From: Thermoanaerobaculia bacterium
GTDB lineage: Bacteria; Acidobacteriota; Thermoanaerobaculia; Multivoradales; J023
Length of the DNA stretch: 64,000 nucleotides
Direction: 5' to 3'
Assembly: GCA_028066595.1 (NCBI GenBank)
Contig: JALCBJ010000005.1
Location: 43,933 to 107,932, forward strand
The notes beneath the pieces are model-generated. The model had not been told where the DNA came from, did not search any database, and was given only the letters and a program-made list of their open reading frames with translations. The translations under genes were made by a program, and so were the position numbers. Each line of letters starts with the position of its first letter. Position 1 is the stretch's first letter. Shown piece by piece: positions 7,635-64,000 of this stretch.

Positions 7635-8390
7635 TCAGACAGGGTTCGGAACGTCGATGAATTCGACTTCGAGGCCGAACTTCTCGGTTACCAGCTCGCC
7701 GAGCCGTCGGATTCCGAGTCGTTCGGTGGCGTAGTGCCCGGCCGCCAAGTAGTGGATTCCGTTCTCTCGGGCGACGTTCATCACCCATTCGCTGCTCTCG
7801 CCGGTGATGTAGGCATCGAGTCCCAGTCCGAGTGCCGCGTACATCTCACTCTGAGCACCTCCAGAGACGATGCCCAGGGTCGAAATGTCGTCCGGGCCGG
7901 CTCCTTGGAGAAGTGGTTCCTGGCCGTAGATCTCCGTACACCGACGAGATAGCTGGTCGGGTGAAACGGGTTCGGGGAACCGACCCCAGAATCCGATGTC
8001 TTCACCCTCGTACGGTGCGAAGGACTGGATGTCCTGGAGACCGAAGGCAGCAGCCGCTAGCGCGTTGTTGCCCACCTCGGCGTGGCGATCGAGGGGGAGA
8101 TGGTAGGCGATGAGATTGATCTCGTGCTCCAGGAGCGTCTTGACACGGCGATACTGCATTCCCGTCAATACCAGGGGCAGGCCCTTCCAGAAGATGCCGT
8201 GGTGGACCAAGACTGCATCGGCTCCAGCTTCCGCGGCACGGTCGAAGAGCTCCTGGCAAGACGAGACCGATGTGACGATCTTGTGGATCTGATCCCGCCC
8301 TTGGACTTGGAGACCATTGGGGCCAAAGTCAGCCTGGCCGGGCGAGTTCAGATAGTCGTCGAGGAAAGCGACGAGCGCACGTGTCTTCAT
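7635..8390 (-). CDS. Nif3-family dinuclear metal centre protein (YqfO/YbgI-like)
   Basis: 251 aa. The conserved 'VLVHHGIFW' and 'HYATERLG' Nif3 motifs are present. CAGGAGCTCC RBS. Confidence 0.8.
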   Translation of the reverse strand: MKTRALVAFLDDYLNSPGQADFGPNGLQVQGRDQIHKIVTSVSSCQELFDRAAEAGADAVLVHHGIFWKGLPLVLTGMQYRRVKTLLEHEINLIAYHLPLDRHAEVGNNALAAAAFGLQDIQSFAPYEGEDIGFWGRFPEPVSPDQLSRRCTEIYGQEPLLQGAGPDDISTLGIVSGGAQSEMYAALGLGLDAYITGESSEWVMNVARENGIHYLAAGHYATERLGIRRLGELVTEKFGLEVEFIDVPNPV

Positions 8391-8434: not shown

Positions 8435-9550
8435 TCAGGCCGCGCCGCGCGCTGCAGCCGCGCTGGCTCTTTCCGCCGAGCGGGCGTCCATCATCTCCTG
8501 ACGTACCTCGTCGAAGCGATCGGCGCAGGCGAGGAACGTATCGACCAAAATCGGGTCGAAGTGCAGGCCGCGGTCTACGCGGATCCGCTCTACGGCTTCG
8601 GTGTGCGGAATGGACTGTTTGTAAGGACGTGGACTCGTGATCGCGTCGTAGGCGTCGGCCACGGCGACGATGCGGGCCGCGAGTGGGATCTGCTCTTGGG
8701 CGAGGCCGGCAGGGTAGCCACCCCCGTCCCACCGTTCGTGGTGACTGTACGCAATCTCCATCGCCATGGTCAGGAACGTCGGACCACGGAAACGTTTCAG
8801 CACCGAGCGCAGAGTATCGCCACCGATCGTCGTGTGGGTGCGCATGGTTTCCAGCTCTTCTGGTGTCAGCGGGCCCGGTTTGCGCAGGATCGAGTCGGCG
8901 ATGCCCACCTTTCCGATGTCGTGTAGGGGAGCCGATTTGAACACCCACTCGACGAACTCGTCGTCGATCTCATTAGCGTAAGGACCGTCTCGCACGTTGT
9001 CGGCGAGCAGACGGCTGTACTCCTGCATGCGTTCGAGGTGCAGTCCCGTTTCCGAATCGCGACTCTCCGCCAGCTTGGCCAGGGTCATCAGCGCGATGTC
9101 GCGGGTGCGCCGGATCTCTTCGGTCTGCTCCTCCACCATGTGCTCGAGATCGCGCTGATAGTCGCGGTTCTCGCGAATCAGCTGTCGGCGCTCCAGAGCG
9201 CGCTCGGTGGTGTTGCTGAGATCCTCTAGCTCGAAGGGCTTTGCCAGGTAGTCATAGGCCCCGGCGCGCAGGCATTCCCGAACCGTGCCGAGGTCCTGTA
9301 GGCCGGAGACCATCACCACCTGGACGTCCTGGTCGATCTGCTTGATTTGACGCAACAGGTCCATGCCGGAGATGCGCGGCATTTCGATGTCGAGCATGAC
9401 CAGGGAAGGCGGGTTGGCGCCAGCGACCTCGGCCAGGGCCTCCTCGTGGTCGCCGGTGTGGCGGGCCGTGAGACCGAGATACTGGAGCTGAGAAGCGACG
9501 AGGGCCCGAACCGATGGTTCGTCGTCGACGATGAGGACGAAATCTTCCAT
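8435..9550 (-). CDS. response regulator with HD-GYP phosphodiesterase output domain (RpfG-like)
   Basis: REC domain (LIVDDEPSVR...MLDIEMP) followed by HD-GYP (HHERWDGGGYP). ATG at 9548-9550. Confidence 0.8.
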   Translation of the reverse strand: MEDFVLIVDDEPSVRALVASQLQYLGLTARHTGDHEEALAEVAGANPPSLVMLDIEMPRISGMDLLRQIKQIDQDVQVVMVSGLQDLGTVRECLRAGAYDYLAKPFELEDLSNTTERALERRQLIRENRDYQRDLEHMVEEQTEEIRRTRDIALMTLAKLAESRDSETGLHLERMQEYSRLLADNVRDGPYANEIDDEFVEWVFKSAPLHDIGKVGIADSILRKPGPLTPEELETMRTHTTIGGDTLRSVLKRFRGPTFLTMAMEIAYSHHERWDGGGYPAGLAQEQIPLAARIVAVADAYDAITSPRPYKQSIPHTEAVERIRVDRGLHFDPILVDTFLACADRFDEVRQEMMDARSAERASAAAARGAA

Positions 9551-9643
9551 GTAACGAGACGCGCGACAGAGATCGCGCTGGGAACTGTGCCAGTTTACAA
9601 CAAGGGCGCTCGCCGCGTCGTAGGACACGCCCAGACGCAAGAA

Positions 9644-9681
9644 AGCCGGACACTGCGAGTACCTCGCAGGTCCGGCTTTCG
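9644..9681 (-). terminator. hairpin aaagccggac...gtccggcttt downstream of pnp (bidirectional-looking)
   Basis: A 10-bp GC stem is flanked by an A-tract and a T-tract, immediately 3' of the pnp stop. Confidence 0.4.
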
Positions 9682-9721
9682 GCGTTACGATGCGGTGTTT
9701 CGGTGTTCGAAACGGTGGTCG

Positions 9722-11989
9722 TTAGCGGCGACCGCCCCGGCCGCCGCGTCCGCGCCCACCGTCGCGTCCGCGTCCGCCACGTCCTCCGTCTCGGCCACCG
9801 CTCCGGCCGCCGCGATCGCCGCCGCCATCCCGGCTGCCGCCTTCGTCTTTGAACTCCTGGAGCGGATCATTCGCTTCGTCGTAGTTCGGATCGTCGAGAA
9901 GAGCGGCGCGGCGGGACAAGCGTATGCGCCCCTTGTCCGAATCGATCTCCAGAACCTTGACGCGCACCTGGTCTCCTTCACGCATGAAGTGGTTCACGTC
10001 CTTGACCCGGAACGGGGCCACCTCGGAGACGTGCAGCAGACCTTCGGTGCCAGGCAGGATCTCGACGAAGGCGCCGAATCCTTCGACCCGCGTGACGATG
10101 CCCTCATAGGTCTTGCCCACTTCAGGCACCTCGGTGAGGCGCTCGATCATTTCGATGGCGCGCTTGGCGGCCAGGCCGTCCGGCGCGGCCACGGTGACCT
10201 TGCCGTCGTCGACCTCCACTTCGCAGCCGGTCTCTTCCTGGATGGCGCGGATGGTCTTGCCGCCCGGGCCAATGATGTCGCGCACCTTGTCGCGCGGTAC
10301 CTCCAAGGTGTAGAGGCGTGGCGCCAAGGCCGAGATCTCCTCGCGGGGCTCGGGTAGGTGTGCTTCCATCCGATCCAGGATGTGCTCGCGACCAGCCTTG
10401 GCCTGGGCCAGTGCAGTACCCATGATCTCCTCGGAAACACCCGTGATTTTGATGTCCATTTGGAGGGCCGTGATGCCGTCGCGGGTACCTGCGACCTTGA
10501 AGTCCATGTCGCCGTGATGATCCTCCTGGCCGGCGATGTCGGAGAGGACGGCGAAGTCGTCGCCGCGCTTGATCAGACCCATGGCCACGCCGGCCACGGG
10601 TGCCAGGAGCGGCACGCCGACGTCGAACATGGCCAGGGACCCGCCACACACCGTCGCCATGGACGAGGAACCGTTCGACTCCAAGATGTCGGAGACGACG
10701 CGAATGGTGTACGGGAAGTCGTCCTCGTGGGGCAGCACCGGTGTCAAGGCGCGGCGAGCCAGGACTCCGTGTCCGATCTCGCGACGGCCGGGTCCGCGCA
10801 GAAAGCGACATTCACCGACGGAGAAGGGCGGGAAGTTGTAGTGCAGCAGGAACTTCTGCATCGAGTCACCGGCGTAGTCCTCGATGATCTGCGCATCGCG
10901 GCGGGTACCGAGGGTGGCGGTGGCCAGGGCCTGCGTCTCGCCACGGGTGAAGATCGCCGAACCATGGGTTCGGGGCAGCACCTGGGTGTCCATCCAGATG
11001 TCGCGAATCTCGTCGAGGGCACGACCATCGAAGCGTCGCTTGCTCTGCAGCACCGCTGCGGCCAAGAGATCCTCTTCTAGGTCCGAGATGATCTTCTTGA
11101 CGGAGGACTTGATGTCATCGAAATTCTCGTGCTCCTCGTACTGGGCGAGGTAGCCGTCGACCACCTCACGCACCGCTGCAGCACGGGCAAACTTCTCCAC
11201 GGTGTGGAGAGCCCGGTTCAGATCGTCCTTGATCTTGTCGGAGACGTCAGCATAGAGGTCCTGAGGATAGGCCTCGGGCTCGTCCCAGACCGGCTTCTCT
11301 TTGCCGATCTCGGCAGCGAGCTCTTTCTGTGCGGCGATGATCTTCTGTAGCTCTTCGTGACCCCGAAAGATGGCGTTGAGCACCACGTCTTCCGTCAGCT
11401 GATTAGCACCAGCCTCCACCATGGTCACAGCATCCTCGGTACCGACCACGATCAGATCGAGGTCGGACACGTCGCGCTCCGAGTTGGTGGGATTGAACAC
11501 CAGCTCACCGTCGATCAATCCGACGCGGACCGCTCCCACGGGGTGGTAGAAGGGGATGTCGGAGATGGTCAGGGCCGTGGACGCACCGTTGATGGCCAGG
11601 ACGTCGGGATCGTTCTCCTCGTCGGCGGAATAGATGAAGGAGATGACCTGGGTCTCAGCGTAGTAGCCCTTCGGGAACAGTGGGCGTAGGGGTCGGTCGG
11701 TCAACCGGGCGGAGATCGTCTCTTTCTCGCTCGGGCGTCCTTCGCGCTTGAAGAAGCCGCCCGGAATGCGGCCTGCGGCAGCGCTCTGCTCTCGGTATTC
11801 GATGGTCAGTGGCAGGAAGGGACGGGGCTGCTTGGGGTTGCCCGACATGCAGGCGGTGGTGAGGACCACGGTGTCGCCGCAGCGCACCATGCAGGAGCCG
11901 TTGGCCTGTTGTGCGACGTAGCCGGTTTCCAAGACGAGCTTGGAGTGACCGATCTCGATCTCTCGGGTGACTTTCGTTCTTTGAGGCAT
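9722..11989 (-). CDS. pnp: polynucleotide phosphorylase with a C-terminal Arg/Gly-rich (RGG) tail
   Basis: Full-length PNPase architecture (two RNase PH domains, KH, S1). It ends with about 45 aa '[25 protein letters not shown]...'. Confidence 0.95.
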   Translation of the reverse strand: MPQRTKVTREIEIGHSKLVLETGYVAQQANGSCMVRCGDTVVLTTACMSGNPKQPRPFLPLTIEYREQSAAAGRIPGGFFKREGRPSEKETISARLTDRPLRPLFPKGYYAETQVISFIYSADEENDPDVLAINGASTALTISDIPFYHPVGAVRVGLIDGELVFNPTNSERDVSDLDLIVVGTEDAVTMVEAGANQLTEDVVLNAIFRGHEELQKIIAAQKELAAEIGKEKPVWDEPEAYPQDLYADVSDKIKDDLNRALHTVEKFARAAAVREVVDGYLAQYEEHENFDDIKSSVKKIISDLEEDLLAAAVLQSKRRFDGRALDEIRDIWMDTQVLPRTHGSAIFTRGETQALATATLGTRRDAQIIEDYAGDSMQKFLLHYNFPPFSVGECRFLRGPGRREIGHGVLARRALTPVLPHEDDFPYTIRVVSDILESNGSSSMATVCGGSLAMFDVGVPLLAPVAGVAMGLIKRGDDFAVLSDIAGQEDHHGDMDFKVAGTRDGITALQMDIKITGVSEEIMGTALAQAKAGREHILDRMEAHLPEPREEISALAPRLYTLEVPRDKVRDIIGPGGKTIRAIQEETGCEVEVDDGKVTVAAPDGLAAKRAIEMIERLTEVPEVGKTYEGIVTRVEGFGAFVEILPGTEGLLHVSEVAPFRVKDVNHFMREGDQVRVKVLEIDSDKGRIRLSRRAALLDDPNYDEANDPLQEFKDEGGSRDGGGDRGGRSGGRDGGRGGRGRDGGRGRGGRGGRR

Positions 11990-45692: not shown

Positions 45693-48600
45693 CTACAGCT
45701 CGATCTGTGCCGAGCCGCGAATCTTCAGCTCTTCGTAAGAGACCTCTGGTCGACTGTAGCGAAGACGTAACCCATCGATGCCCGGGCGCACCAAACACCA
45801 GCTCTGTTCGTGGAACAGGGGTACGAGATAGGCGTGCTCGGTCAAGCGGCGTTCGAACTCCAGGTACAGTGTGTGCCGTGCCTCGCGGTCGCTCTCGAGC
45901 AATGCTCGGTCCGCGAGGTGGCTGAGCTCCAGGTCGTCCCATTGGCGGGCCGTCGGGCCGTGCGCGATGGCCTGGGCGAACGATGCCGGGTCCGGGTAGT
46001 CGGCGATCCATCGATTGAAGACCACGTCGATTGCACCAAGGGAGGTCGAACGGAGTGTCTCCGAGAAATCTGCATGGGTGGGCACTACACGAACACCGAC
46101 GATCTCCAGCGCACCACGGATCTTGCGCCAGAGCTGGCGGTACTCGGCACCGTAGCCGGGATGGAGCGCAACGTTCAGTGTCAGTCCGTCGAGTCGCTCG
46201 GCGCCGGCGGTCGCAGATGCATGGGAGGAATCGGTCGTCGGATCAGAGAGCCCCAGGAGGCTCGGCGGGACTAGCCGGTTCGCCGGCCGACCCAACCGGC
46301 CCAGGGTTGATGGCAGCTCGGACCGAATGTTCGAAAGGAGAGCGGCCAGACTGCGCCGACAACCCGGGTCTGCCAGAGGGCCACGGACAGAAGTCAGTGT
46401 CGCAAAATAGGTAGAAAACGAGGGCTGCTCCATCAGACCCGCGGCATAGTCTGGCCGCCGGCTGAATGCCTCGAGATCCTCGGCAGCGAGTGTCGAGACC
46501 ATCGACAGCCGGCCTGAAGCGAAATCCTCGGCGGCTTGTTCTGGTTCGGTGCCCAACTCGAAGACCATCTCCGCGACCTTGGGCAGAGCGGGCTGGCGAT
46601 AGTCTCCGTTCGCTACCAAGTCGACCCGGCGACCCGGTTGGAAGTCTACGAGTCGAAAAGGCCCCGTCCCCGCGGTACCGTGACGCCAGGTAGGGCCAAA
46701 TTCCTCGGTTCCTTCCGGCACGATGGCCGTGGCGGCGTTCGACAGTAAGGCGGGGAAGTGCGGCACAGGTCGAACGAGAATCAGCTCCAACAGGTGCTCA
46801 CCGACGACCTGCACTCCGGTCAAGTCACCTCTTTCTTCTGCGGTCTCGCGGGCGCCTTCCAGAGCATCCAAGAAGCAATGCAGATCGGGGCTGCCGTGGG
46901 TCAGCAAGCGTCGAAATGAGTAGCGGACGTCGCGAGCCGTGAGGTAGCGACCGTTGTGGAATCGCGTCTTTCGTAGAGTGACGCGCCACCGCCGTCCACC
47001 GTCGTCCGACTCGAGATGCTTCGCGAGATGGGGCACCGCGTTCGCGGTCTCGTCGAGACGGGTCAGAGGCTCGAAGATGTTGGATACCACTTCGGCCGCA
47101 TCCACGTGGACGCACCATGCGGGATCGAGGGTGTCGACGTGTCCACCGAGAGCTACCACCAGACGACCGTCGCGGCGTTCAACCTCGTCCGGGCGGTCTC
47201 TTGGTCGCAAGCTCAGGCGGCTGTAGTTGACGAAGGGCGGCGTGGGGGAGGTTGCAAGGCCTCGGACCCGAGACGACATCAGTCGATACTCGACGTCATG
47301 AAATAGCGGCTGCACCAGATGTCGTCCGAGCAGGAGCTGCTCGAGGTGTCGGTATCGCCTGGTGCGCTCCTCGGAGTCCTTACAGAATCTGGCCTCTTCG
47401 ATCTGGGTGTCCAGCTCCCCGGAGGCGAAGAGAGATCGAAACAGGCCCGCCGAGGAATGGAAGGCGCCATAGAAGAATCCGTCGGGATCAGGATAGTCGG
47501 GCCACCAACGAGCGAATACCAGGTCGAAATCGGCTGGCTCGTTCATCTGACGAGCGAATTCGGCGATCGATACCTGGTGCCTATCGACGTCGATGCCGAG
47601 CCGGCTCCAGGCCTGACACAGAGCATCGGCGATGGGGCGATATTGATCGCTGAAGGCAGGGTGTTCGATCGCCCTCAGCCGAAGGGGCAGAGTGTGGAGG
47701 AATTCCATCGCTCGCAGCGCTTCGTCGTGCGGCATGGTGTCGGGGCGACCGTCGGCATGGTGATCGGAGATTCCTGGAGGCAGCCACCCCACGAGGGGCG
47801 TGGCGAAGCGAGGCAACGTCTTCCAGACGATCTGGGTTACGTCGACAGATGTGGCCAGCACGCGGCGTAGCTCCGGATCCCCCAGCGCCGGACCCCGAGG
47901 GTTGAGCAAGGTGAAGTAGACGTTGTTCTGAGGTGTGTCCGCTAGCCGATCGCTTCCCGGGCGTCTTTGGAACTCGGCTACGTCGGATGGAGAGAGATCG
48001 CGAGCCAGATCGAGCTCGCCTCGGCGCCAGGCAGCCGCAATGTCTCGGCTGTGGCGAAAGAACTCGACTTCCATTCGATCGACGAAGGGGTGGAGAGGAT
48101 GAGAGTCGTTGCGGGTCAGGACCAAGCGCTCTGGGCTACGGTGTGCGAGGCGAAATGCTCCGGTACCGATCGGTGGTGTGTCGCCGTCGTACCGGAGCGC
48201 GACCGCGATGCGTGGATCCGACAACAGCGCCGGGAATGCGGCCAGGGGGTCGCGAAGCCGGATCAACAACTCTTTCTCGTTTGGAGCGGCGACCTCGGCT
48301 ACCACGTCGAGCGCCGCGGGTCGTCTGCCAGCCGCAAGACGAGCTGCCTGGCGCAGCGAGGTCTGAACTGTCGTTGCGGTCAGTGGAGTACCGTCGCTGA
48401 AGGTTCGCCTCGTGTCGATTCGAAAGCGATAGGTCAGGCCATCGTCCGAGCACTCCCAAGAGGGTCCTAGGCACGGGTGAAGTGCACCGTCGGCGCTCGC
48501 GCGGAGGAGGGGCTCGAATATCAGTTGGGAGATCTCGGCGTCCTGCGCCGAAATCGCGTCCGTCGGATCGAGCCCGGTGAACGAACGGATCATGGCCACT

Positions 48601-51470
48601 CGAAGTGTGCCGCCGGGTGCTTCCGGTGAATCGGTCCAGGTTTCGGCACGTAGGCGGGCCGCCTCGCCCAAGAGCTGGCGTCCCTCTTCGCTCTGGCCAG
48701 CCAGGTTCCGGACCGTGCCGCCGAGGCTGAGTAGGGATCCAAGTGTTTCGCGCGCCGGCTCGCCTGCCAAGCGAGCCCATCCGATTCCGAGCTCGAGCCA
48801 GGATCGGGTCTCTTCGATCCGTTGGGCTCGCCAAGAGGTCTCGGCAAGAAAAAGGGCGATGTCGGCCATCGTGGCGGCAGATTCCTTGGTGGCTTCAAAG
48901 TCGCTCTCTTCTTCCTGGAGCTCCATTGAAAGGCGGTCGAACATTTGCTGACCTTCGGCCATCGCTTCTGAAATCAGACCCTTCGCGGCCAGGGCTGTGG
49001 CGCGTGCGCGCCGGAGCTCGATCTCGACGTTGACCTGGGCTTCGTCAACGAATCCGAGAGCTAGGTCGCAGGCGGACAGGGCATCGTCCCAGTGGCAGGT
49101 CGCGACGAAACGGCGGGCCTGCATCGAGCCGTAGCGAAGAGCTTCCGACGCCACACGAGCTTCTGCGAAATGGTGCAGCAGCTCCAGCGCCCTTCGACGG
49201 ACCTGTCCGGAGGGCCGGCGGGATAGGGATCGTGCCCGACGTAGATGGAGCCGCCGGCGTCGTTCGGCTGGTATTTGGCGATACACCACCTCGCGCACGA
49301 TGCCATTGGTGAAACGTAGGTTCCGCCCGCGCCGTCCGGAAGGGTGCTTCTCCAGCAGGCCCCGGGCGATCAATGTGTCGACAGCCTTCTCAAGATCCTC
49401 GGTGGAGAGCTCGAGGGGAAGCTCCGATGATTCGTTCTCGGTAAGAGCCGCAATGGCTACGAGATCTTCGAGGTCGCGCTCCATGACGTGATGACCCAGG
49501 ATCGACGCTGCTTCTACGACCAGCAGTGGTCGCTCTCTCAGCCTTTCCAACTTGGCCTCGACTGCCTGACGAACGCTCGAGGGTAGAACTCCGGCAAGCG
49601 GTAGGCCATCGGCAGTTCTCGTGGCGCCCGAAACGCGGAGCTCGTCTCCCCGACCCGGAGTAGGCTCCTCCGATTTCGCCAGGGCGTGGAGTAGCTCGGA
49701 GGTGAAGAACGGACTTCCGTTCGTGGCCTCGAAGATCCTGCGGATCAAGTCCGGGTCTGCAGGCGCGCCGAGTACTTCTTCGACCAACTCGGTGTGTTCA
49801 TCGACTCCTAGAGGGCCGAGATGAATCTCCCGGAAGCGCGGATCGGCTCGCAGCCCACCGATCGATCGGGCCAGTGGATGCGTCCGCGGCACCTCGGTCG
49901 GACGATAGGAGGCGACCAAGAGAATCGGCGCCGAAGACAGGCGGCGAAGCAGATACTGGAGGAAGCCGACCTCCATATTTGCCTGGTGAATCTGTTCCAT
50001 CACGAGAACGCACGGCCGCCCATGGGCCATGCGGCCCAAGGTGCGCGCGATCAGCTCGCCGTGCTGGTTCGGTTCGTCGGAATGACCCGGCCGCTCGACT
50101 CCGCGAGCCGCTTCGCGAATCGCGGGCACTTCCGCGAGTGCCGGAAACGCCGCAGAGAGCTCCGCTGCCAAGCTGCTCAGGTCTGGCGGGATACGGTCGG
50201 TCGGCTCGATGTCGCCATCTGCGGATCCGTTCGAGCCCAGTCGCCCAGGATCGGACTCCATGTTAGAGGAGCCACCAGAAGAGGCCTCCGAGACCGCTTC
50301 ATCAAGCTGTAGGAAGTAGTCCTCGACCAGCTCGTAGAAGGCGCCGTACTTGTTGGGGCCTTCTGCTTCCGCGAAGCTTCCGTGGAGAACGAGCGCGTGC
50401 CGACTCCGCGCTTCGTCCTCTAGAGCCTCGAGAAGCCGTGTCTTGCCCGATCCCGTGTCGCCGGAGACGAACACCAACTGCAGCGCACCAGGCTCGGCTC
50501 GCTCCAAGGCACGTCGTAGTTTTTCGAGTTCCTGATTCCGGCCGATCAGTGGTGGCTCGGACTTCCTGGCCCGGCGGCGCCGGTGCCGGTGTCCGGCCGG
50601 TCTCGTATCGGTCTCGTCGATGCGTCCACCGACTGCGCGCAGCGCTCGGGCGAGCTCGCTACCGGTTTGGATCCGATCCTCGGGATCTTTCTCCAAACAA
50701 GTGCGGAGCACGTCCAGGAGCAACGGATCCGTGAAATCCGCTTCCGGAAACTCAGGCGTCTCGTGGACGATGCGGTAGAGAACCGAGGGCGAGGCGCCAC
50801 CAAACGGTGGTCGGCCGAAGAGGCTCTCGTAGAGAATGATCCCGACGGAATAGAGGTCGGAACGACCGTCGAGGTCCGGATTCGACAGGATCTGTTCGGG
50901 ACTGAGATAGGCCAGTGTACCGGGCAAGATACCGGTCTTGGTGAGTCGGGTCGAAGTGCGGCACAACGCCAGCCCGTAGTCCATCACCTGGACGCGCCGC
51001 ACCGCCTCCACACCCTCGCCGCCATCGAGTGCGATCATGAGGTTCTCGGGTTTGATGTCGCGGTGCACAACGCCGCGACTAGCGCTGTGGTCGAGCGCTT
51101 CAGCGACTCGAGCCAAGATCTCCAAGATCTGGATCAGGGGAGGTGGTCGGTCGTGCAGCAGGCGGTGCAATGTCTCTCCCTCGAGGAGGGGCATCACAAA
51201 AAAGAGCTGGTCTTCGTCCCGTCCGAAGTCGTAGATCGGAACGACGGCTGGATGATCGAGTCGGCCCACCAGCCGAGCTTCGCGCTGGAACCGCCGGATC
51301 GCGTCCTTCCTTAGGCCTTCTGCTGCCAGCACCTTGACTGCGACCTCTCGATGCAATGCTCGATCGGTCGCGCGATACACGGTGGCCATGCCACCTTGTC
51401 CGAGCTCGGCCCGCGTCTCGTAGCGACCCGCCAAGCAACGTCCGATCACGGAGATCCGCCTGCAGGCCAT
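45693..51470 (-). CDS. giant multidomain protein: Hanks-type Ser/Thr kinase + STAND/AAA_16 NTPase + TPR-like helical region + two tandem family-5 solute-binding-protein (DppA/OppA-like) domains; predicted cytoplasmic
   Basis: Kinase: 'GQGGMATVYRA', 'HRDIKPENLM', 'DYGLA', 'GTLAYLSPE'. NTPase: Walker A 'GDTGSGKT'. SBP5 starts 'GGTLRVAMIRSFTGLDPTDA' and 'RLVVALGGHVDTLDPAW'. No signal peptide or TM helix anywhere. ATG at 51468-51470; the 390-nt in-frame extension to 51860 is low-complexity and contains a hairpin. Confidence 0.8.
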   Translation of the reverse strand: MACRRISVIGRCLAGRYETRAELGQGGMATVYRATDRALHREVAVKVLAAEGLRKDAIRRFQREARLVGRLDHPAVVPIYDFGRDEDQLFFVMPLLEGETLHRLLHDRPPPLIQILEILARVAEALDHSASRGVVHRDIKPENLMIALDGGEGVEAVRRVQVMDYGLALCRTSTRLTKTGILPGTLAYLSPEQILSNPDLDGRSDLYSVGIILYESLFGRPPFGGASPSVLYRIVHETPEFPEADFTDPLLLDVLRTCLEKDPEDRIQTGSELARALRAVGGRIDETDTRPAGHRHRRRRARKSEPPLIGRNQELEKLRRALERAEPGALQLVFVSGDTGSGKTRLLEALEDEARSRHALVLHGSFAEAEGPNKYGAFYELVEDYFLQLDEAVSEASSGGSSNMESDPGRLGSNGSADGDIEPTDRIPPDLSSLAAELSAAFPALAEVPAIREAARGVERPGHSDEPNQHGELIARTLGRMAHGRPCVLVMEQIHQANMEVGFLQYLLRRLSSAPILLVASYRPTEVPRTHPLARSIGGLRADPRFREIHLGPLGVDEHTELVEEVLGAPADPDLIRRIFEATNGSPFFTSELLHALAKSEEPTPGRGDELRVSGATRTADGLPLAGVLPSSVRQAVEAKLERLRERPLLVVEAASILGHHVMERDLEDLVAIAALTENESSELPLELSTEDLEKAVDTLIARGLLEKHPSGRRGRNLRFTNGIVREVVYRQIPAERRRRLHLRRARSLSRRPSGQVRRRALELLHHFAEARVASEALRYGSMQARRFVATCHWDDALSACDLALGFVDEAQVNVEIELRRARATALAAKGLISEAMAEGQQMFDRLSMELQEEESDFEATKESAATMADIALFLAETSWRAQRIEETRSWLELGIGWARLAGEPARETLGSLLSLGGTVRNLAGQSEEGRQLLGEAARLRAETWTDSPEAPGGTLRVAMIRSFTGLDPTDAISAQDAEISQLIFEPLLRASADGALHPCLGPSWECSDDGLTYRFRIDTRRTFSDGTPLTATTVQTSLRQAARLAAGRRPAALDVVAEVAAPNEKELLIRLRDPLAAFPALLSDPRIAVALRYDGDTPPIGTGAFRLAHRSPERLVLTRNDSHPLHPFVDRMEVEFFRHSRDIAAAWRRGELDLARDLSPSDVAEFQRRPGSDRLADTPQNNVYFTLLNPRGPALGDPELRRVLATSVDVTQIVWKTLPRFATPLVGWLPPGISDHHADGRPDTMPHDEALRAMEFLHTLPLRLRAIEHPAFSDQYRPIADALCQAWSRLGIDVDRHQVSIAEFARQMNEPADFDLVFARWWPDYPDPDGFFYGAFHSSAGLFRSLFASGELDTQIEEARFCKDSEERTRRYRHLEQLLLGRHLVQPLFHDVEYRLMSSRVRGLATSPTPPFVNYSRLSLRPRDRPDEVERRDGRLVVALGGHVDTLDPAWCVHVDAAEVVSNIFEPLTRLDETANAVPHLAKHLESDDGGRRWRVTLRKTRFHNGRYLTARDVRYSFRRLLTHGSPDLHCFLDALEGARETAEERGDLTGVQVVGEHLLELILVRPVPHFPALLSNAATAIVPEGTEEFGPTWRHGTAGTGPFRLVDFQPGRRVDLVANGDYRQPALPKVAEMVFELGTEPEQAAEDFASGRLSMVSTLAAEDLEAFSRRPDYAAGLMEQPSFSTYFATLTSVRGPLADPGCRRSLAALLSNIRSELPSTLGRLGRPANRLVPPSLLGLSDPTTDSSHASATAGAERLDGLTLNVALHPGYGAEYRQLWRKIRGALEIVGVRVVPTHADFSETLRSTSLGAIDVVFNRWIADYPDPASFAQAIAHGPTARQWDDLELSHLADRALLESDREARHTLYLEFERRLTEHAYLVPLFHEQSWCLVRPGIDGLRLRYSRPEVSYEELKIRGSAQIEL

Positions 51471-51632
51471 CTGCCGTCGGTGCGCTCTTCCAGGTCCGAG
51501 ATGCCGACCGTTCGGTTGGTATCTAGCGCGTACGACACTCTCATCGAGCTCTTGATTCGATGACCACGGTCTTCGACCCTCAGGGTGCTCGGCTCCTGAG
51601 AGGGACCCGTTTCCTACGCCCAGATACAACGA

Positions 51633-51681
51633 GGCCCCCTCCGGTTGGCGTCCCGCGAGGGACGGTCGGAGGGGGCTTTTT
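51633..51681 (+). terminator. orphan intrinsic-terminator-like hairpin (GC stem + TTTTT) on the plus strand, in the 5' region of the giant kinase gene
   Basis: gccccctccg...cggagggggc followed by ttttt, with a nested gtccc/gggac stem. No plus-strand gene is evident upstream. Confidence 0.3.
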
Positions 51682-52030
51682 ACCCCGAGCCCCCCTCGTG
51701 GTAAAAGCAGGTCCGAAGACCGTGAAGCGTAGATTCCAAGGCGTTGCAGTGGGCCGTTGGAGCCGAATGAAGAGAAGTTGTCGCGAAGTCTCGGGTGATG
51801 CCCCCCAGCGACCACCCTCGCCTCCGCGACGCCATTTAAGAACTGCATTCGGCGTGCCAACTTCTCCGCCGAGAGTCGGAAATCTCGTATCCGCCAACAG
51901 ATCCGAAGAGCGCTATCCGAGGAAGTGTGTTGATTTTCAACGGATTTCGACGCATCTTAGCCCGAAGAAAGAGATCGAGGCGGTCTCATCATGCGACGGA
52001 GCTTGGCGTAGAACACTTGGTTTCTGGGTC

Positions 52031-57280: not shown

Positions 57281-58669
57281 ATGCGTCTGATCTCAGGTTT
57301 CACAGTCCGAACCGCAGGAGGTACTCCCTTGAGACTTCGTAACGTGCTTCTCTGCTTGCTCCCCCTCGCCTTGCTGGCGACGGCGGTGGTAGCGCAGGAC
57401 AAGATCTTCCCCTACGACGTTCACGAAGAGGTGCTCGACAACGGTCTGTCAGTCGTGGTCGTACCCATGGACTCCGGTGGCCTGGTGGCCTACTGGTCCA
57501 TCGTCCGTACCGGATCCCGAGACGAGTACGAACCTGGACGCAGCGGTTTCGCTCACTTCTTCGAGCACATGATGTTCCGCGGTACCGAGCGTTTTCCGGC
57601 CGATGTCTACAACGGCAAGGTCACGGAGATCGGCGCCGACGCCAATGCCTTTACTTCCAGCGATCTCACCGCCTACTACTTGACGATCGCGGCGGAAGAC
57701 CTGGAGACCGTGGTGGACCTGGAGAGCGACCGCTTCCGGAACCTCGCGTATAAGAAAGGCGATTTCCAGACCGAGGCCGGGGCCATCTACGGCGAGTACC
57801 GAAAGAACTTCGCCAACCCCTTCTTCCAGATGAACGAGAAGATCAGTGAAGTGGCGTTCACGCAGCATACCTATGGTCACACGACGATGGGTTATGAAGC
57901 CGATATCCAGGCTATGCCCGAGCTCTACGACTACTCACTCACGTTTTTCGAGCGCTACTACCGGCCGGACAACATCGTGCTGCTGATCGTGGGTGACGTG
58001 GAAGTGAACGCCACCATGGACCTGGTCCGCCGCTACTATGCGGACTGGGAAGCGGGATACGTGGCGCCGGATGTGAAGCCCGAGCCGGAGCAGACAGAAG
58101 AACGCTCTGTGGACATCGAGTATCCAGGAGCCAGTTTCCCGATCATCTGGTTGGCCTACAAGGGTCCGGCATTCGACGCCGCCGACCGTATGCAGGCCGC
58201 AGGCCGTGTGTTGTGCTCGCTGGCGTTCGGCGAGACCAGCGAGTTCTACCAACGAATGGTGCTCGACGAGCAGCGTGTGGAGTTCGTCGACTGCTCTCTC
58301 GGTACGTCCCGTGATCCGGGCCTGATCAACGTCATCGCTCGTCTCAAATCGAAGGACGAAGCGGAGATCGAAGCCGTGATTGGCGAGATCGGCTCGACAA
58401 TCGACAGATTCAAGGAAACGGCTCCCGACGCTCAGCGGGTGACCGACCTGCAGTCGCGTCTTCGCTACGGATTCTTGATGAACCTCGATACGCCTTCGAA
58501 CGTCGCAGGCAATCTCGTGCGTCTACTTTCGGTCACCGGACAGTTCTCCAGTATCGAAACCATGTATCAAACCCTCGCTGAAGTGACGCCAGACGACGTG
58601 AAGGCCGCGGCTGGTGAGTTTTTCGTCGGGGAACGGCGGACGGTCGGTGTGCTGCGAGGTGCCAAGTGA
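57281..58669 (+). CDS. M16 family zinc peptidase (pitrilysin-like, catalytic subunit)
   Basis: Inverted zinc motif 'HFFEHMMF'. Signal peptide. A TTG at 57329 with GGAGG 7 nt upstream is an alternative start. Confidence 0.8.
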   Translation: MRLISGFTVRTAGGTPLRLRNVLLCLLPLALLATAVVAQDKIFPYDVHEEVLDNGLSVVVVPMDSGGLVAYWSIVRTGSRDEYEPGRSGFAHFFEHMMFRGTERFPADVYNGKVTEIGADANAFTSSDLTAYYLTIAAEDLETVVDLESDRFRNLAYKKGDFQTEAGAIYGEYRKNFANPFFQMNEKISEVAFTQHTYGHTTMGYEADIQAMPELYDYSLTFFERYYRPDNIVLLIVGDVEVNATMDLVRRYYADWEAGYVAPDVKPEPEQTEERSVDIEYPGASFPIIWLAYKGPAFDAADRMQAAGRVLCSLAFGETSEFYQRMVLDEQRVEFVDCSLGTSRDPGLINVIARLKSKDEAEIEAVIGEIGSTIDRFKETAPDAQRVTDLQSRLRYGFLMNLDTPSNVAGNLVRLLSVTGQFSSIETMYQTLAEVTPDDVKAAAGEFFVGERRTVGVLRGAK

Positions 58670-60213
58670 TGAGTCGACTCAGAAACTCCTACACCCTCTT
58701 GCTTGCCTGCACGCTGTCCCTCGGCCTCGCCGCTTGCGCGCCTCCGGACGATCCTCAAGCCGGACCGTTCGACGACTACGCCGGCAACGCTGTGCTCCTG
58801 CCCGTGGAGAATGACCCCACCGTCACGTTCGCCGTTTGGTTCCAGAGCGGAACGCAGGACGATCCTGTAGGCAAGGAAGGTCTCGCTCGGCTGACCGCTT
58901 CGATGATCTCAGACGGTGCCACGGCGGAGAACAGTTACCAGGACATCCTGAAGAAGCTCTATCCGATCGCTTCCGGCTACGGCGTCCGTGTCGACAAGGA
59001 AATGACGGTGCTCACGGGCCGCACCCACCGGGACAATCTGGATCTCTTCTTCCAGCTGTACAGCGATGCATACCTTCGACCAGCTTTCGACGAGGCGGAT
59101 TTAGATCGCTTGAAGAAAGATCAGCTGAACAACCTCGAGACGAGCCTGCGCTACGCGGCCGACGAGGAGCTCGGCAAGGCGGCGCTCGACCTGGCGGTCT
59201 ATTCCGGCACGCGCTATGCCCACCCGGTATCTGGCACGGTCGAAGGCCTCCGATCGATCACTCTCGAAGACGTCAAGAACTTCTACGTCCAGAACTACAG
59301 CCGACGCAACGCAGTACTGGCTTTGGGCGGCGGTTTCGACCGCGCCCTGCTCGATCGGTTCGAGGCGACCCTCCAGCAGATGCCACAGAGCCCTGCGCCG
59401 GCGGAGCCGGAGATCGCGACGGCCACCCTCGAGGGACGCAAGGTGACACTGGTATCCAAGCCCGGTGCGGACGCGTCCATCAGCTTCGGTCGCCCGGTGA
59501 CGGTGCGGCGTGGCACGCGCGACTTCTATGCTCTGTGGATTGCCAACTCGTGGCTGGGGGAACATCGCAACTCGTCCAGTCACCTGTACAACGTCATCCG
59601 CGAAACCCGCGGTATGAACTACGGTGACTACTCGTACATCGAAGCCTTCCCCCAGGGCGGCTTCCGCTCGATGCCGCCAACGAATGTAGCCCGCGACCAT
59701 CAGAAGTTCGAGGTGTGGATTCGGACGCTGCCCAACGAGCAGGCCGTGTTCGCTCTGCGTGCCGCCTTGCGTGAGCTGGACATGCTGATCGACAACGGGT
59801 TGAGCGAGGAGCAGTTCCAGCTGACCCGTTCCTTCCTGTCGAAGTATCACTTGCACTTCGCCACCACGACTGCGGAACGTCTCGGGTATCTGATCGATGA
59901 CCGCTTCTACGGCATCGATGCACCTGGGCACTTGACCACCTTCGGCGAGATGATGAGCTCCATCACCCTCGACGAGGTCAACGCGGCGGTAAAGAAGTAC
60001 CTCCAGACCAACGACCTGGAGATTGCCATCGTCACCGGCGACGCCGAAGGCTTGACGCGTCAGTTGACTTCGGGTGAGCCCACCCCCATGTCCTACAGCA
60101 TCGAGAAGCCGGCGGAGGTCCTCGAAGAGGACAAGATCATCGAAGCCTACGCGCTGCACATCTCGGAAGACGCTGTGACGGTGATCCCGGTCACGGACAT
60201 CTTCGAGAACTGA
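58666..60213 (+). CDS. M16 family peptidase-like lipoprotein (non-catalytic partner subunit)
   Basis: Lipobox 'LGLAAC'. M16 and M16_C folds without HxxEH. The start overlaps the upstream stop. Confidence 0.7.
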   Translation: MMSRLRNSYTLLLACTLSLGLAACAPPDDPQAGPFDDYAGNAVLLPVENDPTVTFAVWFQSGTQDDPVGKEGLARLTASMISDGATAENSYQDILKKLYPIASGYGVRVDKEMTVLTGRTHRDNLDLFFQLYSDAYLRPAFDEADLDRLKKDQLNNLETSLRYAADEELGKAALDLAVYSGTRYAHPVSGTVEGLRSITLEDVKNFYVQNYSRRNAVLALGGGFDRALLDRFEATLQQMPQSPAPAEPEIATATLEGRKVTLVSKPGADASISFGRPVTVRRGTRDFYALWIANSWLGEHRNSSSHLYNVIRETRGMNYGDYSYIEAFPQGGFRSMPPTNVARDHQKFEVWIRTLPNEQAVFALRAALRELDMLIDNGLSEEQFQLTRSFLSKYHLHFATTTAERLGYLIDDRFYGIDAPGHLTTFGEMMSSITLDEVNAAVKKYLQTNDLEIAIVTGDAEGLTRQLTSGEPTPMSYSIEKPAEVLEEDKIIEAYALHISEDAVTVIPVTDIFEN

Positions 60214-60224
60214 CGGAGAGAACC

Positions 60225-60713
60225 ATGAAGCTCAATCGCTACGCTCTCGCTGCGTTCGTTCTACTTGCTCTCGCCCTGCCGCCGACGGCCACCGAAGCCA
60301 CCGATTCGGTCTCCGGAACGTACGGCGAAGCGCCGACCTTGGAGGACGTCACGCCGATCGCCGATATCGTTGCCAATCCCGAAGCTTTCCAGGGCCGAGA
60401 AGTCCTCGTCGAAGGAAAGGTGCAAGGCGTGTGCGCCAAGGCCGGCTGTTGGATGGAACTCGCCGACGGTGAGGGTCATGAGGTTCGCGTCAAGGTGGAA
60501 GACGGTGTCATCGTCTTTCCGGTAGCGGCGGTGGGCGTCAATGCCGCCGCCCAGGGTACGGTCTCGGTGCACGACATGAGCCGCGACGAGTATCTCGGCT
60601 GGCAGCGTCACCTCGCGGAGGAGATGGGCGAGGAGTTCGATGAGTCGTCCATCGGCGAAGGTCCCTATCAGCTCGTGCAAATCGCCGGAACCGGCGCCCA
60701 CATCGACGGCTGA
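60225..60713 (+). CDS. secreted DUF4920-like protein
   Basis: Signal peptide. 'GKVQGVCAKAGCWMEL' cysteine pair typical of DUF4920. Confidence 0.55.
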   Translation: MKLNRYALAAFVLLALALPPTATEATDSVSGTYGEAPTLEDVTPIADIVANPEAFQGREVLVEGKVQGVCAKAGCWMELADGEGHEVRVKVEDGVIVFPVAAVGVNAAAQGTVSVHDMSRDEYLGWQRHLAEEMGEEFDESSIGEGPYQLVQIAGTGAHIDG

Positions 60714-60775
60714 GAACGGTCGCGCTGTCGGTTTGAGTCGGCCGGTCTGACGATCAGTAGAGGCTCAACGAGCTC

Positions 60776-62473
60776 CTAGTCGTTGACCCGGGCGATCTGC
60801 AGCGCGAAACCCAGTTCCGTCAAGCGGTCAAGGGTTCGGCAAACTTCGATCTTGGCGAAGAGCGGAAGCACTCTGCGCGGATCGAGAACTGAACCGTCCG
60901 GCCCGAACCAGGACTTCTCGACGATAACCAGGATGACCGTCTGGTCAGGACGCCGGGGAAACCTCAGCGGAACGACCTGCAGAAGCGGGTCTGGATTCTT
61001 CCGGTCTTGTCTAGCGGCGCTGCGGATCTTTCTCCGAGCCTGTTTCCTGAAGTCCCGGCTGCTGCACAGCAGCTCGGACGATACTGTTGCCTGGCCGCAT
61101 ACGTAGCTGATCGACCCCGAGCCTTTTCCCTTCTTGACGTGAAGGAGCTTTCCGTCAGCGGTCAGTACGTCGCAGAACTCGATGGCCGTCGTTCGCCTCG
61201 GGATGGTGATGACGTTTCGAGCATCCATCATCAAGCGGCCCGCGGGCGCTCCGATCGCCGTGTTGTAAGCCCGTTCATCGATGCGCTGACCGTCTCCATA
61301 GCTCCGGGCCGGAGCTTCGCTGAAAGAGATTAGGGAGAGACTCTCCGCCGCAGTAGCGTCGATCGAGGAGATCTTCTCGTCGAGGGAATCGACGAACCGG
61401 TCCGAGATTCTAAAGACGCTGCCCTCGCTCAGAGCGAAGCTGTCGTCGCCAACGACAACGACTCCGTCGAGCCAATCTCGCAGACGGACCTCAAGTTTGA
61501 TCTCATCGTCGGAATCGATCATTCGCAATCGATGCTTGTTGAACTCGTCGAGATCGAGTCTCGTCAGTCGGTCCAAAGAGGCAAGGAGCGAGCGATAGTC
61601 GCCAAGGTCGAGATCGCCGAGCACATGGCCTCCGCGGGCACTGTGACCAGAGACGCCAAGGATCGAAAACGAGAGTTGAGAGAGGTCTTCGGGACCAGGG
61701 GGTGAGAGCCCCAGTTCTGCGATGGATCCGGAACGGATCGCTCGCACGGCTTGGGACCAGACCCGTTGTCGTTCTTTGGAGTCGTGTACGAGCTCAAAGT
61801 TGTCTATGAACTCGAAGTGCTTCTTGTAGTCCGTTCTCGAGAAGTCGTCTTCGAGACGTTCACAGAGCTCGGGCAATTGGGAGAGCGAACCCCGCCAGCT
61901 GAGTTTGAGGGCGTCTCCCCCCGAGATATTGGGACCCCACTTGTCCCGATTGACTCGGACCTGAACTCCGCGAAGAATCTGGCGGCCCGGATTGAATCCG
62001 AATTCTTCATGAGTGATAGCAGCGCTGGACATGGCGTCCGATGTGATCCCTCTGGTCAGATCCTTCGATCTTTCCCCTCGGAGGAGCTTTCCTCCCTCGA
62101 GGAGATCATGGGATCTCTGGTCATATAGAAGATTCAGGGCTATGCGCCGGCCCCAACCGCGGTAAATCCGATTGGGAAGTACCAATGTGTGGCCCTGTGG
62201 GCCAAAGGGGACCGCATAGTTGTGCTCTCCTCTACTAAGGAGGAGGACGCCACGTGGCGACTTGTTCTCGTAGTCGGGAATGTCGTCGAAGTGCTCCTGG
62301 ATTGCTGACCACCACGGTGGCACCTTTTCTGAGATCTCTGGGTACCAGAATTCTGCACCCGGAAGAGTGTCCGAACCTTCGGCAGCTCTCAACCTGGAAG
62401 GTCGACTCAGATAGTCCTGAAGGTCTGTCGAGCTTCCGCGGAGACGGTATACACTGATCGGCAGTGCAGGCAT
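60776..62473 (-). CDS. large orphan hypothetical protein in a lower-GC segment (possibly TIGR04141/DUF6119-type sporadically distributed family; not confirmed)
   Basis: 565 aa. GC is visibly lower than the flanks, and there is an AT-richer 300-bp upstream intergenic region. No catalytic motif recognised. Confidence 0.5.
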   Translation of the reverse strand: MPALPISVYRLRGSSTDLQDYLSRPSRLRAAEGSDTLPGAEFWYPEISEKVPPWWSAIQEHFDDIPDYENKSPRGVLLLSRGEHNYAVPFGPQGHTLVLPNRIYRGWGRRIALNLLYDQRSHDLLEGGKLLRGERSKDLTRGITSDAMSSAAITHEEFGFNPGRQILRGVQVRVNRDKWGPNISGGDALKLSWRGSLSQLPELCERLEDDFSRTDYKKHFEFIDNFELVHDSKERQRVWSQAVRAIRSGSIAELGLSPPGPEDLSQLSFSILGVSGHSARGGHVLGDLDLGDYRSLLASLDRLTRLDLDEFNKHRLRMIDSDDEIKLEVRLRDWLDGVVVVGDDSFALSEGSVFRISDRFVDSLDEKISSIDATAAESLSLISFSEAPARSYGDGQRIDERAYNTAIGAPAGRLMMDARNVITIPRRTTAIEFCDVLTADGKLLHVKKGKGSGSISYVCGQATVSSELLCSSRDFRKQARRKIRSAARQDRKNPDPLLQVVPLRFPRRPDQTVILVIVEKSWFGPDGSVLDPRRVLPLFAKIEVCRTLDRLTELGFALQIARVND

Positions 62474-62781
62474 TCGATAACCTCATGCAGAGTTTCTTCC
62501 AGAAAGACACTCTTTCATCAGTGCAGATGCTCCCTTGCAGAAGGGATGCAGTTATTTTGCGACAAACAGCCTATCAGCTCACCCTGTTCTGCCGCACGAG
62601 GCCAGCGCGACGACCATGGGCCCCTGACCGAGTCCACCAGGCCGAAACCGATCGTGAGCTCGACGCGATCGTCGAAGTCGGGGCTTCTGGTGGCCTCCTG
62701 GAGTCGCAGCCCAAGCTCGATGGCCGACGCATTCGAATCCGGCGGTCTGGGTGGTCGACGGTCGCGAGTAGCTGACTCTCT

Positions 62782-64000
62782 TCAGCCACTCCGCACGCGA
62801 TGAACGCGCATCAGGTTGGTGAGCGGCCGCTGGTCGATGGGGTCGCCCATGAGGATGGTGATGGTGTCACCGGGCCGGGCGAGTTGCTTTTCCACCAGGA
62901 TCCGATCGACCGACGCCACGACCTCGTCGTGGTGGTTCACTTCATATTCGAGGAGCACGGGGCGGGCACCCCACACCAGCTGCACACGCCGCGCGACCTC
63001 CTCGTTGCGCGTGAATACTGTGATCGGGGTGTTGGGGCGATAGCGGGCGATCATGCGGGCGGTGAAGCCACCTTGGGAGAACGCGACAATGTGTTTGCAG
63101 TCGATACGGTCGACGGCGTAGACGGCGGCAGCGGAGACGACCTCGGGGATCTCGAGATGAAGATCTCTGCCGGCGTTCAGGTAGGGCTGTTCCGAGCTGC
63201 CGGGCAATAGGTGAGTTGCCGCCGGTTTGTCCTTCGGATCGTAAGCTTTGGGCCTGCGATAGTGCTCCGCTTCCTCGATGATCCGACACATGGTGCCGAC
63301 GGCCTCGACCGGGAACCGGCCGGCTGCTGTTTCACCCGACAGCATGAGCGCGTCGGCGCCATCGAAGACCGCGTTGGCCACATCCGAGGTTTCCGCACGG
63401 GTCGGACGCGGCTGCTGCATCATCGACTCGAGCATCTGGGTGGCAACGATCACCGGCTTGCCGTAGCGTCGACCCGAGGAGATGATCTGTTTCTGCATCA
63501 CCGGGACGCGATGGGGCGGGACTTCGACACCCAGGTCGCCGCGTGCGACCATCACCGCATCGGCGGCCTGCACGGTCGGATCGAGGCGCTTCATTACCGC
63601 TGCGCGTTCCAATTTGGCGATGAGCGGTAGGTTGCCCCGATGTTCCTCCATCACGCCGCGGATGGCTTCCAAATCTCCAGGACCGCCGACGAAGCTGACA
63701 GCTATGAAGTCGGCGTCGTGCTCGACGGCAAACGCGATGTCAGCGCGATCTTTGTCGGAGATGGTGAAGGGTAGGTCGGTATCCGGCAGGTTGATACCCT
63801 TGCGGGTCGATACCTGACCACCGAAGACCACGGTCGCAAGCACTCTCCTGTCGGCGCGCTGGACGACCTCGAGCTCCACTAGGCCGTTGTCGATCAGAAC
63901 CCGCTCACCCACCTGTAGGCTGTCGAGGAATTCTGATTCCTCCACAGGCAAATCGACCTCTCCGACGCCGAAGGTGACCTCCTCGCCGGCTTCCAACATC
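62782..64000 (-). CDS. pyk: pyruvate kinase (3' portion; the N-terminus lies beyond the window end)
   Basis: 'MVARGDLGVE', 'VIVATQMLESM', 'SGETAAGRFP' PK motifs. The ORF runs off the window at 64000. Confidence 0.9.
   Translation of the reverse strand, partial: MLEAGEEVTFGVGEVDLPVEESEFLDSLQVGERVLIDNGLVELEVVQRADRRVLATVVFGGQVSTRKGINLPDTDLPFTISDKDRADIAFAVEHDADFIAVSFVGGPGDLEAIRGVMEEHRGNLPLIAKLERAAVMKRLDPTVQAADAVMVARGDLGVEVPPHRVPVMQKQIISSGRRYGKPVIVATQMLESMMQQPRPTRAETSDVANAVFDGADALMLSGETAAGRFPVEAVGTMCRIIEEAEHYRRPKAYDPKDKPAATHLLPGSSEQPYLNAGRDLHLEIPEVVSAAAVYAVDRIDCKHIVAFSQGGFTARMIARYRPNTPITVFTRNEEVARRVQLVWGARPVLLEYEVNHHDEVVASVDRILVEKQLARPGDTITILMGDPIDQRPLTNLMRVHRVRSG

Follow-up and report, generated by a model that had tools for sequence, protein, structure and literature searches.

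A gene of the DUF6119/TIGR04141 family lies in the 64-kb stretch of Thermoanaerobaculia DNA analysed here (the window), in the gap between the genes for a DUF4920 protein and pyruvate kinase (pyk). The explanation that fits best, and that is favoured with moderate confidence, is that of a horizontally acquired single gene for a candidate defence protein of the nuclease type.

The segment from 60714 to ~62560 would then be a single-gene cassette of ~1.85 kb that entered by horizontal transfer. Its site, where the 3' ends of DUF4920 and pyk converge, would be a gap prone to rearrangement. The C-terminal third of the protein would form a metal-dependent PD-(D/E)xK-type domain with the variant signature E...E-x2-D...H-x-K...Q, and target recognition or control of the nuclease would be the likeliest task of the N-terminal two thirds. 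As a whole, the protein would most probably be a stand-alone immune effector directed at phages or plasmids that degrades nucleic acids, probably DNA, either in a Type IV-restriction-like or in an abortive-infection-like manner.

The gene and its family

The DUF6119 gene occupies 60776..62473 on the minus strand. It is an intact open reading frame (ORF) of 565 amino acids with an ATG start, and the coordinates include the stop codon. Pfam and NCBIfam both match the protein from end to end. PF19614 (DUF6119) covers positions 1-523 of 524 in its hidden Markov model (HMM), with an E-value of 1.4e-88 and 298 bits (cut-off 27), and TIGR04141 covers positions 1-516 of 516, with an E-value of 1.2e-75 and 255 bits (cut-off 35). 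A preliminary description of this DNA, made before any database had been searched, had guessed at precisely this family. An NCBI entry that is 100% identical to the window protein, from a metagenome-assembled genome of Thermoanaerobaculia (Acidobacteriota), carries the name 'TIGR04141 family sporadically distributed protein'.

The window protein is a new, divergent member of this known but uncharacterised family. An exhaustive profile search returned 4,365 cluster representatives at E<=1e-3, 1,954 of them at E<=1e-30, and the family amounts to about 4,400 clusters at 50% identity. Within it, the window protein belongs to a small divergent subclade of long forms (565-580 amino acids). It shares 40% identity with its nearest relative and 20-28% with most family members. 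When the homologue search was repeated with a profile of six sequences, the same six proteins came back. Nine residues that are invariant in the family are all kept in the window protein: W54, G91, G108, E400, E432, D435, H445, K447, and Q461.

A variable gap between DUF4920 and pyk

On its left side the gap is bounded by the DUF4920 gene (60225..60713, plus strand), which ends a plus-strand M16-M16-DUF4920 block (57281-60713). The DUF6119 ORF is convergent with this block, and a spacer of 62 bp (60714..60775) separates the stops of DUF4920 and DUF6119. On the right side lies pyk (62782..63999, minus strand), of which the window holds the 3' part before the gene runs off its end. The DUF6119 ORF is on the same strand, 308 bp downstream of pyk, whose stop is at 62782. 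Length, orientation, and placement of the ORF are thus as first described. Two source assemblies, an ENA scaffold of 174 kb and a Logan contig of 21 kb, agree on this gene arrangement, and their agreement speaks against a local mis-join.

Relatives of the locus were found through DUF4920 proteins 72-87% identical to the window's copy, which occur on Thermoanaerobaculia-like contigs. These contigs show ~80-82% nucleotide identity to the window. The homology breaks off precisely at the DUF4920 stop (60713; blastn against L090, L092, and L189) and picks up again at the pyk stop (62779-62781). What lies between the two genes differs from contig to contig. The gap measures 2,067 bp in the window, where it holds the DUF6119 gene. 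It is empty in L092 and L093 (117 bp) and in L189 (43 bp). In L090 it measures 1,227 bp and holds an Mrr_cat gene with a guanine plus cytosine (GC) content of 60% in a locus of 67% GC. The Mrr_cat gene (8735-9370, minus strand) is placed between DUF4920 (8001-8366) and fragments of pyk (9597-10681). Finally, three contigs (L186, L187, and L188) have a GH114-family gene after DUF4920, in place of pyk. The intergenic DNA of the window shows no similarity to that of the relatives.

Because the gap is empty in three contigs, filled by an Mrr-type gene in one, and filled by DUF6119 in the window, the DUF6119 gene is accessory and not core. A scan at the level of species, using the M16 peptidase, yielded 80 loci with neither DUF4920, pyk, nor DUF6119 nearby; at no more than 65% identity these loci are too distant to be informative.

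In the L090 contig, which comes from a long-contig assembly, the C-terminus of the Mrr_cat protein and the adjacent pyk look frameshifted.

Atypical composition and horizontal acquisition

The DUF6119 ORF was compared with neighbouring genes and with sliding windows of its own length (1698 bp). Its GC content is 58.0%, against a mean of 62.4% for the window. This places it within the lowest 0.6% of the sliding windows, ~3.3 standard deviations under the mean, and the ten sliding windows with the lowest GC all overlap it. GC at third codon positions (GC3) is 0.67, compared with ~0.70-0.82 in neighbouring genes. The score for synonymous-codon usage, 0.080, is the lowest among credible genes of the window (0.10-0.31 in the others). 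The preliminary description had noted the low GC and named codon usage as a check, and both bear it out. Its figure of ~67% GC for the flanks was too high, since recalculation gives ~60-65%.

Horizontal acquisition, which had been offered there as a possibility, is supported by this atypical composition and by close relatives that lack the gene at this site; in L092, L093, and L189, DUF4920 directly adjoins pyk.

A classical genomic island or mobile element was considered and rejected. No integrase or transposase was found within +/-10 kb of the gene, and no tRNA within 50-64 kb. Flanking direct or inverted repeats, terminal repeats, and a target-site duplication were sought at the locus, and nothing exceeded the level expected by chance. 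The remark in the preliminary description that nothing mobile is nearby therefore stands.

Predicted structure and putative active site

The full protein was modelled with AlphaFold2 on an alignment of 125 sequences, giving a predicted local distance difference test score (pLDDT) of 94.1 and a predicted template modelling score (pTM) of 0.88. A Foldseek search with this model against the PDB found no significant match to the whole chain. Residues 385-565 were also modelled alone (pLDDT 93.1). When a structure search was made with these residues, the nuclease matches were retained and scored higher: N.BspD6I 7.9, NucS 7.5, R.BspD6I 7.2, FokI 7.2, and CdiA-CT EC869 7.0. Other nucleases matched by this part are SfsA, HamA, Hna, NgoMIV, Shedu, OkrAI, Bse634I, and BamHI, followed by BstYI, Can2, Cas4, LlaBIII, BglII, PspGI, and Cfr10I. 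Because these matches persist with residues 385-565 alone, a nuclease fold is assigned to the C-terminal third.

Kinship with RdgC (PF04381), a nucleoid-associated and recombination-associated DNA-binding protein, was followed as a lead only. RdgC dropped off the match list when residues 385-565 were searched alone, and the protein has no RdgC match in Pfam.

The predicted restriction-endonuclease-like domain of PD-(D/E)xK type corresponds to 60779..61303 on the minus strand (~residues 391-565). In the model its elements follow in the order helix (E400), strand, strand (with E432-F-C-D435 before it), strand (H445-V-K447), helix (S452...S456-H/Y457...Q461), and strand. This is the canonical alpha-beta-beta-beta-alpha-beta core, and as modelled it resembles solved nucleases.

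The putative active site is encoded by a block at 61091..61276 (minus strand), which reads E400 ... E432-F-C-D435 ... H445-V-K447 ... S452 ... S456-Y457 ... Q461; the translation was checked. Residues E400, E432, D435, H445, K447, and Q461 are invariant in the 125 cluster representatives and almost invariant in another 66 sequences from metagenomes. In the model, they lie on the secondary-structure elements that carry the catalytic residues in PD-(D/E)xK enzymes, with E400 on helix 1, D435 at the start of beta-2, and H445-x-K447 in beta-3. The preliminary description had seen no recognisable catalytic motif, a view that gives way to this putative E400/E432/D435/H445/K447/Q461 site once the family alignment and the model are considered.

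The remaining N-terminal and middle region (61304..62473, minus strand; ~residues 1-390) is modelled as beta-rich domains joined by helices. A Pfam scan at E-values up to 10 found no NTPase or other known motif in these two thirds of the protein. This region is proposed to act as a sensor or as a DNA-binding part.

Genomic neighbourhoods of the family

Homologues of the protein are found recurrently beside or inside restriction-modification (R-M) and other defence systems, above the level seen in a control set of M16 loci. The clearest cases are three alphaproteobacterial plasmids with the gene order hsdM-hsdS-DUF6119-hsdR followed by a gene for a SprT-like metalloprotease. On these plasmids, from Actibacterium (L094, 4152-5873), Paracoccus albus (L095, 6875-8602), and Mesorhizobium (L096, 6875-8542), the DUF6119 gene lies between hsdS and hsdR, and the reading frames abut or overlap. 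On pSymB of S. meliloti, DUF6119 comes directly after hsdMSR-SprT.

Among ten annotated plasmid contexts, four are within or adjoining a type I R-M system, and three more are near TIR, NACHT, or NB-ARC genes. These other copies are accompanied by TIR and deaminase genes, by a giant NACHT gene, or by a DNA methylase with NB-ARC/TPR genes. One plasmid copy sits beside hydrogenase maturation genes. In metagenomes, one homologue adjoins an Eco57I-type methylase and XhoI, and another is found between Dam methylase/DUF87 and McrBC. One member of the window protein's subclade is flanked by a DDE transposase and a Phd/ParE pair.

On plasmid pAMI8 of Paracoccus aminophilus (L193, 4649-7641), DUF6119 overlaps the end of a hypothetical gene of 446 amino acids and follows a pair encoding an ATP-binding protein and an S8 peptidase. 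This may represent a different, multi-gene layout in one subclade.

Neighbours were surveyed at 69 non-redundant metagenome loci, where the two ORFs closest to the gene on either side were called, giving 144 proteins. The commonest Pfam families among them are Helicase_C, N6_Mtase, ResIII, DEAD, SNF2, Methylase_S, Type_ISP_C, TIR_2, PLDc_2, NOV_C, and Eco57I. None of the nine from Helicase_C to PLDc_2 belongs to the 25 commonest families of the M16 control, and relative to that control R-M and helicase domains are enriched. PADLOC models matched type I and type IIG methylases, DrmD, and BrxH among the neighbours. No neighbour family occurs in more than 4 of the 69 loci, so DUF6119 has no obligate partner. 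The suspicion that the gene is a standalone module from a family at home in defence islands is thereby strengthened on both counts.

Few plasmid records contain a member of the family (29 of 72,556). The family is nearly absent from IMG/VR, with six loci, and no match was found among GenBank phages.

Upstream region and other features of the locus

The preliminary description had called the 300 bp upstream of the gene AT-rich. This holds for the 87-bp leader directly before the gene (62474..62560, minus strand; 44.8% GC). It does not hold for the whole 308-bp stretch, which at 59% GC is in the 9th percentile and unremarkable, or for its distal part. That part (62561..62781, plus strand) is a host-like spacer of 221 bp with 64.7% GC that adjoins the pyk stop. 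The foreign piece probably runs from 60714 to ~62560.

The leader has a GAGG ~8 nt before the ATG and presumably carries the gene's own promoter and ribosome-binding site (RBS), brought in with it. It also contains the palindrome TCCCTTCTGCAAGGGA (62531-62546), which has no T-run after it and may serve as an operator or form an RNA hairpin. A consensus sigma-70 promoter and a terminator were looked for in the upstream region and not found, and no Rfam family matched there.

Inside the host-like spacer, the stretch 62635-62724 (plus frame, within the plus-strand ORF 62464-62775) encodes 30 amino acids that resemble the C-terminal part of the GH114-family gene of L186-L188. The resemblance extends to 74% over 73 bp in blastn (E 3e-6) and to 16 of 30 amino acids in tblastn (E 4e-4), and the stretch closes with a stop codon a few bases from the pyk stop. 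It is probably the relic of a GH114-family gene that was displaced during rearrangement of the locus. Since the occupants differ between relatives and a GH114-like relic is probably present, the site between DUF4920 and pyk has been rearranged repeatedly.

A giant ORF at 45693-51860 (minus strand) lies ~9 kb from the DUF6119 gene. It has 2,055 amino acids by ORF call and a product of 1,925 amino acids on record, and it combines Ser/Thr protein kinase, AAA_16 (STAND-like ATPase), and SBP_bac_5 domains.

Weighing the explanations

Several observations weigh against a defence nuclease. No Z value in the structure search reaches 8, and similar scores are obtained for some unrelated alpha/beta folds. 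The beta-3 motif is H-x-K, in which His replaces the acidic residue usual in (D/E)-x-K. Pfam scans of three separate parts of the protein, at E-values up to 10, matched DUF6119 alone and no nuclease family. Profile searches against PDB sequences gave nothing meaningful and linked the protein to no solved structure. The genomic company is also diluted, with defence-type domains on only ~10-15% of the neighbours at the metagenome loci. The control consisted of 96 neighbours of M16 loci treated by the same procedure, and its 25 commonest families are all housekeeping, in taxa that differ from those of the DUF6119 set. In the window, no R-M or other defence gene was found within +/-10 kb of the gene. 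No model of PADLOC v2 (PADLOC-DB v2.0.0) matches the window protein or nine diverse family members, so the PADLOC check that the preliminary description had named came out negative. A literature search on DUF6119/TIGR04141 found no paper on function. Finally, the window protein departs from its family at two conserved positions. Y457 (codon 61103-61105) stands where 124 of 125 representatives have His, which turns S-H-L-F-A-Q into S-Y-V-C-G-Q, and M148 (codon 62030-62032) stands where 114 of 125 have Gln. These changes may reflect functional drift or inactivation, and the window copy could be impaired.

Four other explanations were compared, and among those retained the most weight falls on a role tied to type I R-M. 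A type I R-M complex would be the usual partner of DUF6119, or the object that it monitors, on the logic of PrrC or TgvAB, and the window copy would be an orphan that lost its partner. The plasmid arrangements described above, three with the gene between hsdS and hsdR and a fourth with it directly after hsdR-SprT, speak for such a role. Precedent exists as well, since genes that lie within type I R-M operons act as defence systems in their own right, as shown for TgvAB (PMC11411939) and in a guilt-by-embedding study (10.1101/2024.01.29.577857). The supplements of the latter do not list the identifiers DUF6119, TIGR04141, or PF19614. However, neighbour clusters of HsdR, HsdM, and HsdS size each occur in only 4 of the 69 metagenome loci, other contexts of the family lack a type I system, and there is none within 10 kb in the window's genome, which makes this role unlikely. 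Next in weight is an accessory gene of a mobile element with a non-immune part in DNA transactions such as recombination, repair, or nucleoid and plasmid maintenance, its nuclease-fold domain processing or binding the element's DNA. Against it, the locus has no mobility gene, the family is scarce on plasmids and in viral records, and the commonest annotated class of neighbour is R-M. A comparison with RdgC by hhalign gave a probability of 0.3%. This role, too, is improbable.

The possibility that the window copy is a decaying or inactive passenger, acquired and no longer working, draws on the unique H457Y change together with Q148M, on the lack of partner or defence neighbours at the locus, and on a closest homologue that is only 40% identical. 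Against this, the reading frame is full-length, without frameshift or truncation, and the HMM match runs from end to end. None of the nine invariant residues is lost, the model is confident along the whole chain, and there is a plausible RBS, so that inactivity has a rather small chance of being correct. The last explanation is that of a core gene, vertically inherited, whose lower GC stems from amino-acid composition or from chance. It can appeal to the modest size of the GC drop (4.4 points) and to GC at first and second codon positions, which is within the normal range. It is contradicted by the three related contigs with an empty site and the one with a different gene, and also by the combination of the lowest GC in the window with low GC3; DUF6119 is beside the M16 pair in none of the 80 distant species-level relatives. 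The empty sites exclude a core gene for practical purposes, and it receives almost no weight.

Acquisition as a single-gene defence candidate of nuclease type is therefore preferred for the window. For the family as a whole, the matter is finely balanced and inclines slightly towards doubt. DUF6119/TIGR04141 could be an unrecognised, widespread family of single-protein immune effectors with a variant restriction-endonuclease fold and an E/E-x2-D/H-x-K/(S-H)/Q site, possibly with a metal site at C434/H445/H457. In many cases it would form a second line of defence within a type I R-M operon.

Implications

If this is true, the gap between DUF4920 and pyk in these Acidobacteriota would be a miniature defence hotspot in which single nuclease genes, Mrr or DUF6119, are swapped. 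The presence of an Mrr-type nuclease in the same gap of relative L090 fits a small hotspot that exchanges such genes. Metagenome contigs would document a small site on the chromosome, flanked by conserved housekeeping genes, at which different single-gene nucleases take each other's place. Replacement of this kind is the expected mode of turnover for defence genes in poorly sampled phyla such as Acidobacteriota.

A family without a function, found sporadically across bacteria, also gains a testable hypothesis, namely that of a stand-alone defence nuclease with defined candidate catalytic residues. Cultured carriers with DUF6119 inside type I R-M operons exist in Sinorhizobium meliloti, Agrobacterium, Paracoccus, and Mesorhizobium. 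A new kind of system is not revealed, as single-protein PD-(D/E)xK defence nucleases and defences embedded in R-M are both established themes.

Comparison with known systems

Mrr, MspJI, the cleavage domains of FokI and BspD6I, and NucS are single-chain enzymes, Type IV or Type IIS-like, with a C-terminal PD-(D/E)xK domain. The window protein would share this layout, but it has no sequence similarity to them, and its motif is H-x-K whereas theirs is (D/E/Q)-x-K. An Mrr-type Type IV restriction endonuclease was considered as an identity for the window protein and rejected, as Pfam gives it no match to Mrr_cat (PF04471); the Mrr_cat gene is that of relative L090.

DUF6119 matches none of the PADLOC models and differs from HamA (Hachiman), SduA (Shedu), and Hna. 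HamA requires the helicase HamB, and Hna has a helicase of its own, whereas DUF6119 has neither an NTPase domain nor a conserved partner.

PrrC combines an ABC-ATPase with an anticodon nuclease, and TgvAB, from VPI-2 of V. cholerae, is GmrSD-like. The proteins of both are unrelated to DUF6119, and the window copy is not embedded in any other system. The likeness is one of position. PrrC and TgvAB are embedded in type I R-M systems, and DUF6119 is likewise found between hsd genes on several plasmids, an arrangement for which TgvAB and the guilt-by-embedding work provide the precedent that a type I R-M operon can house an independent defence.

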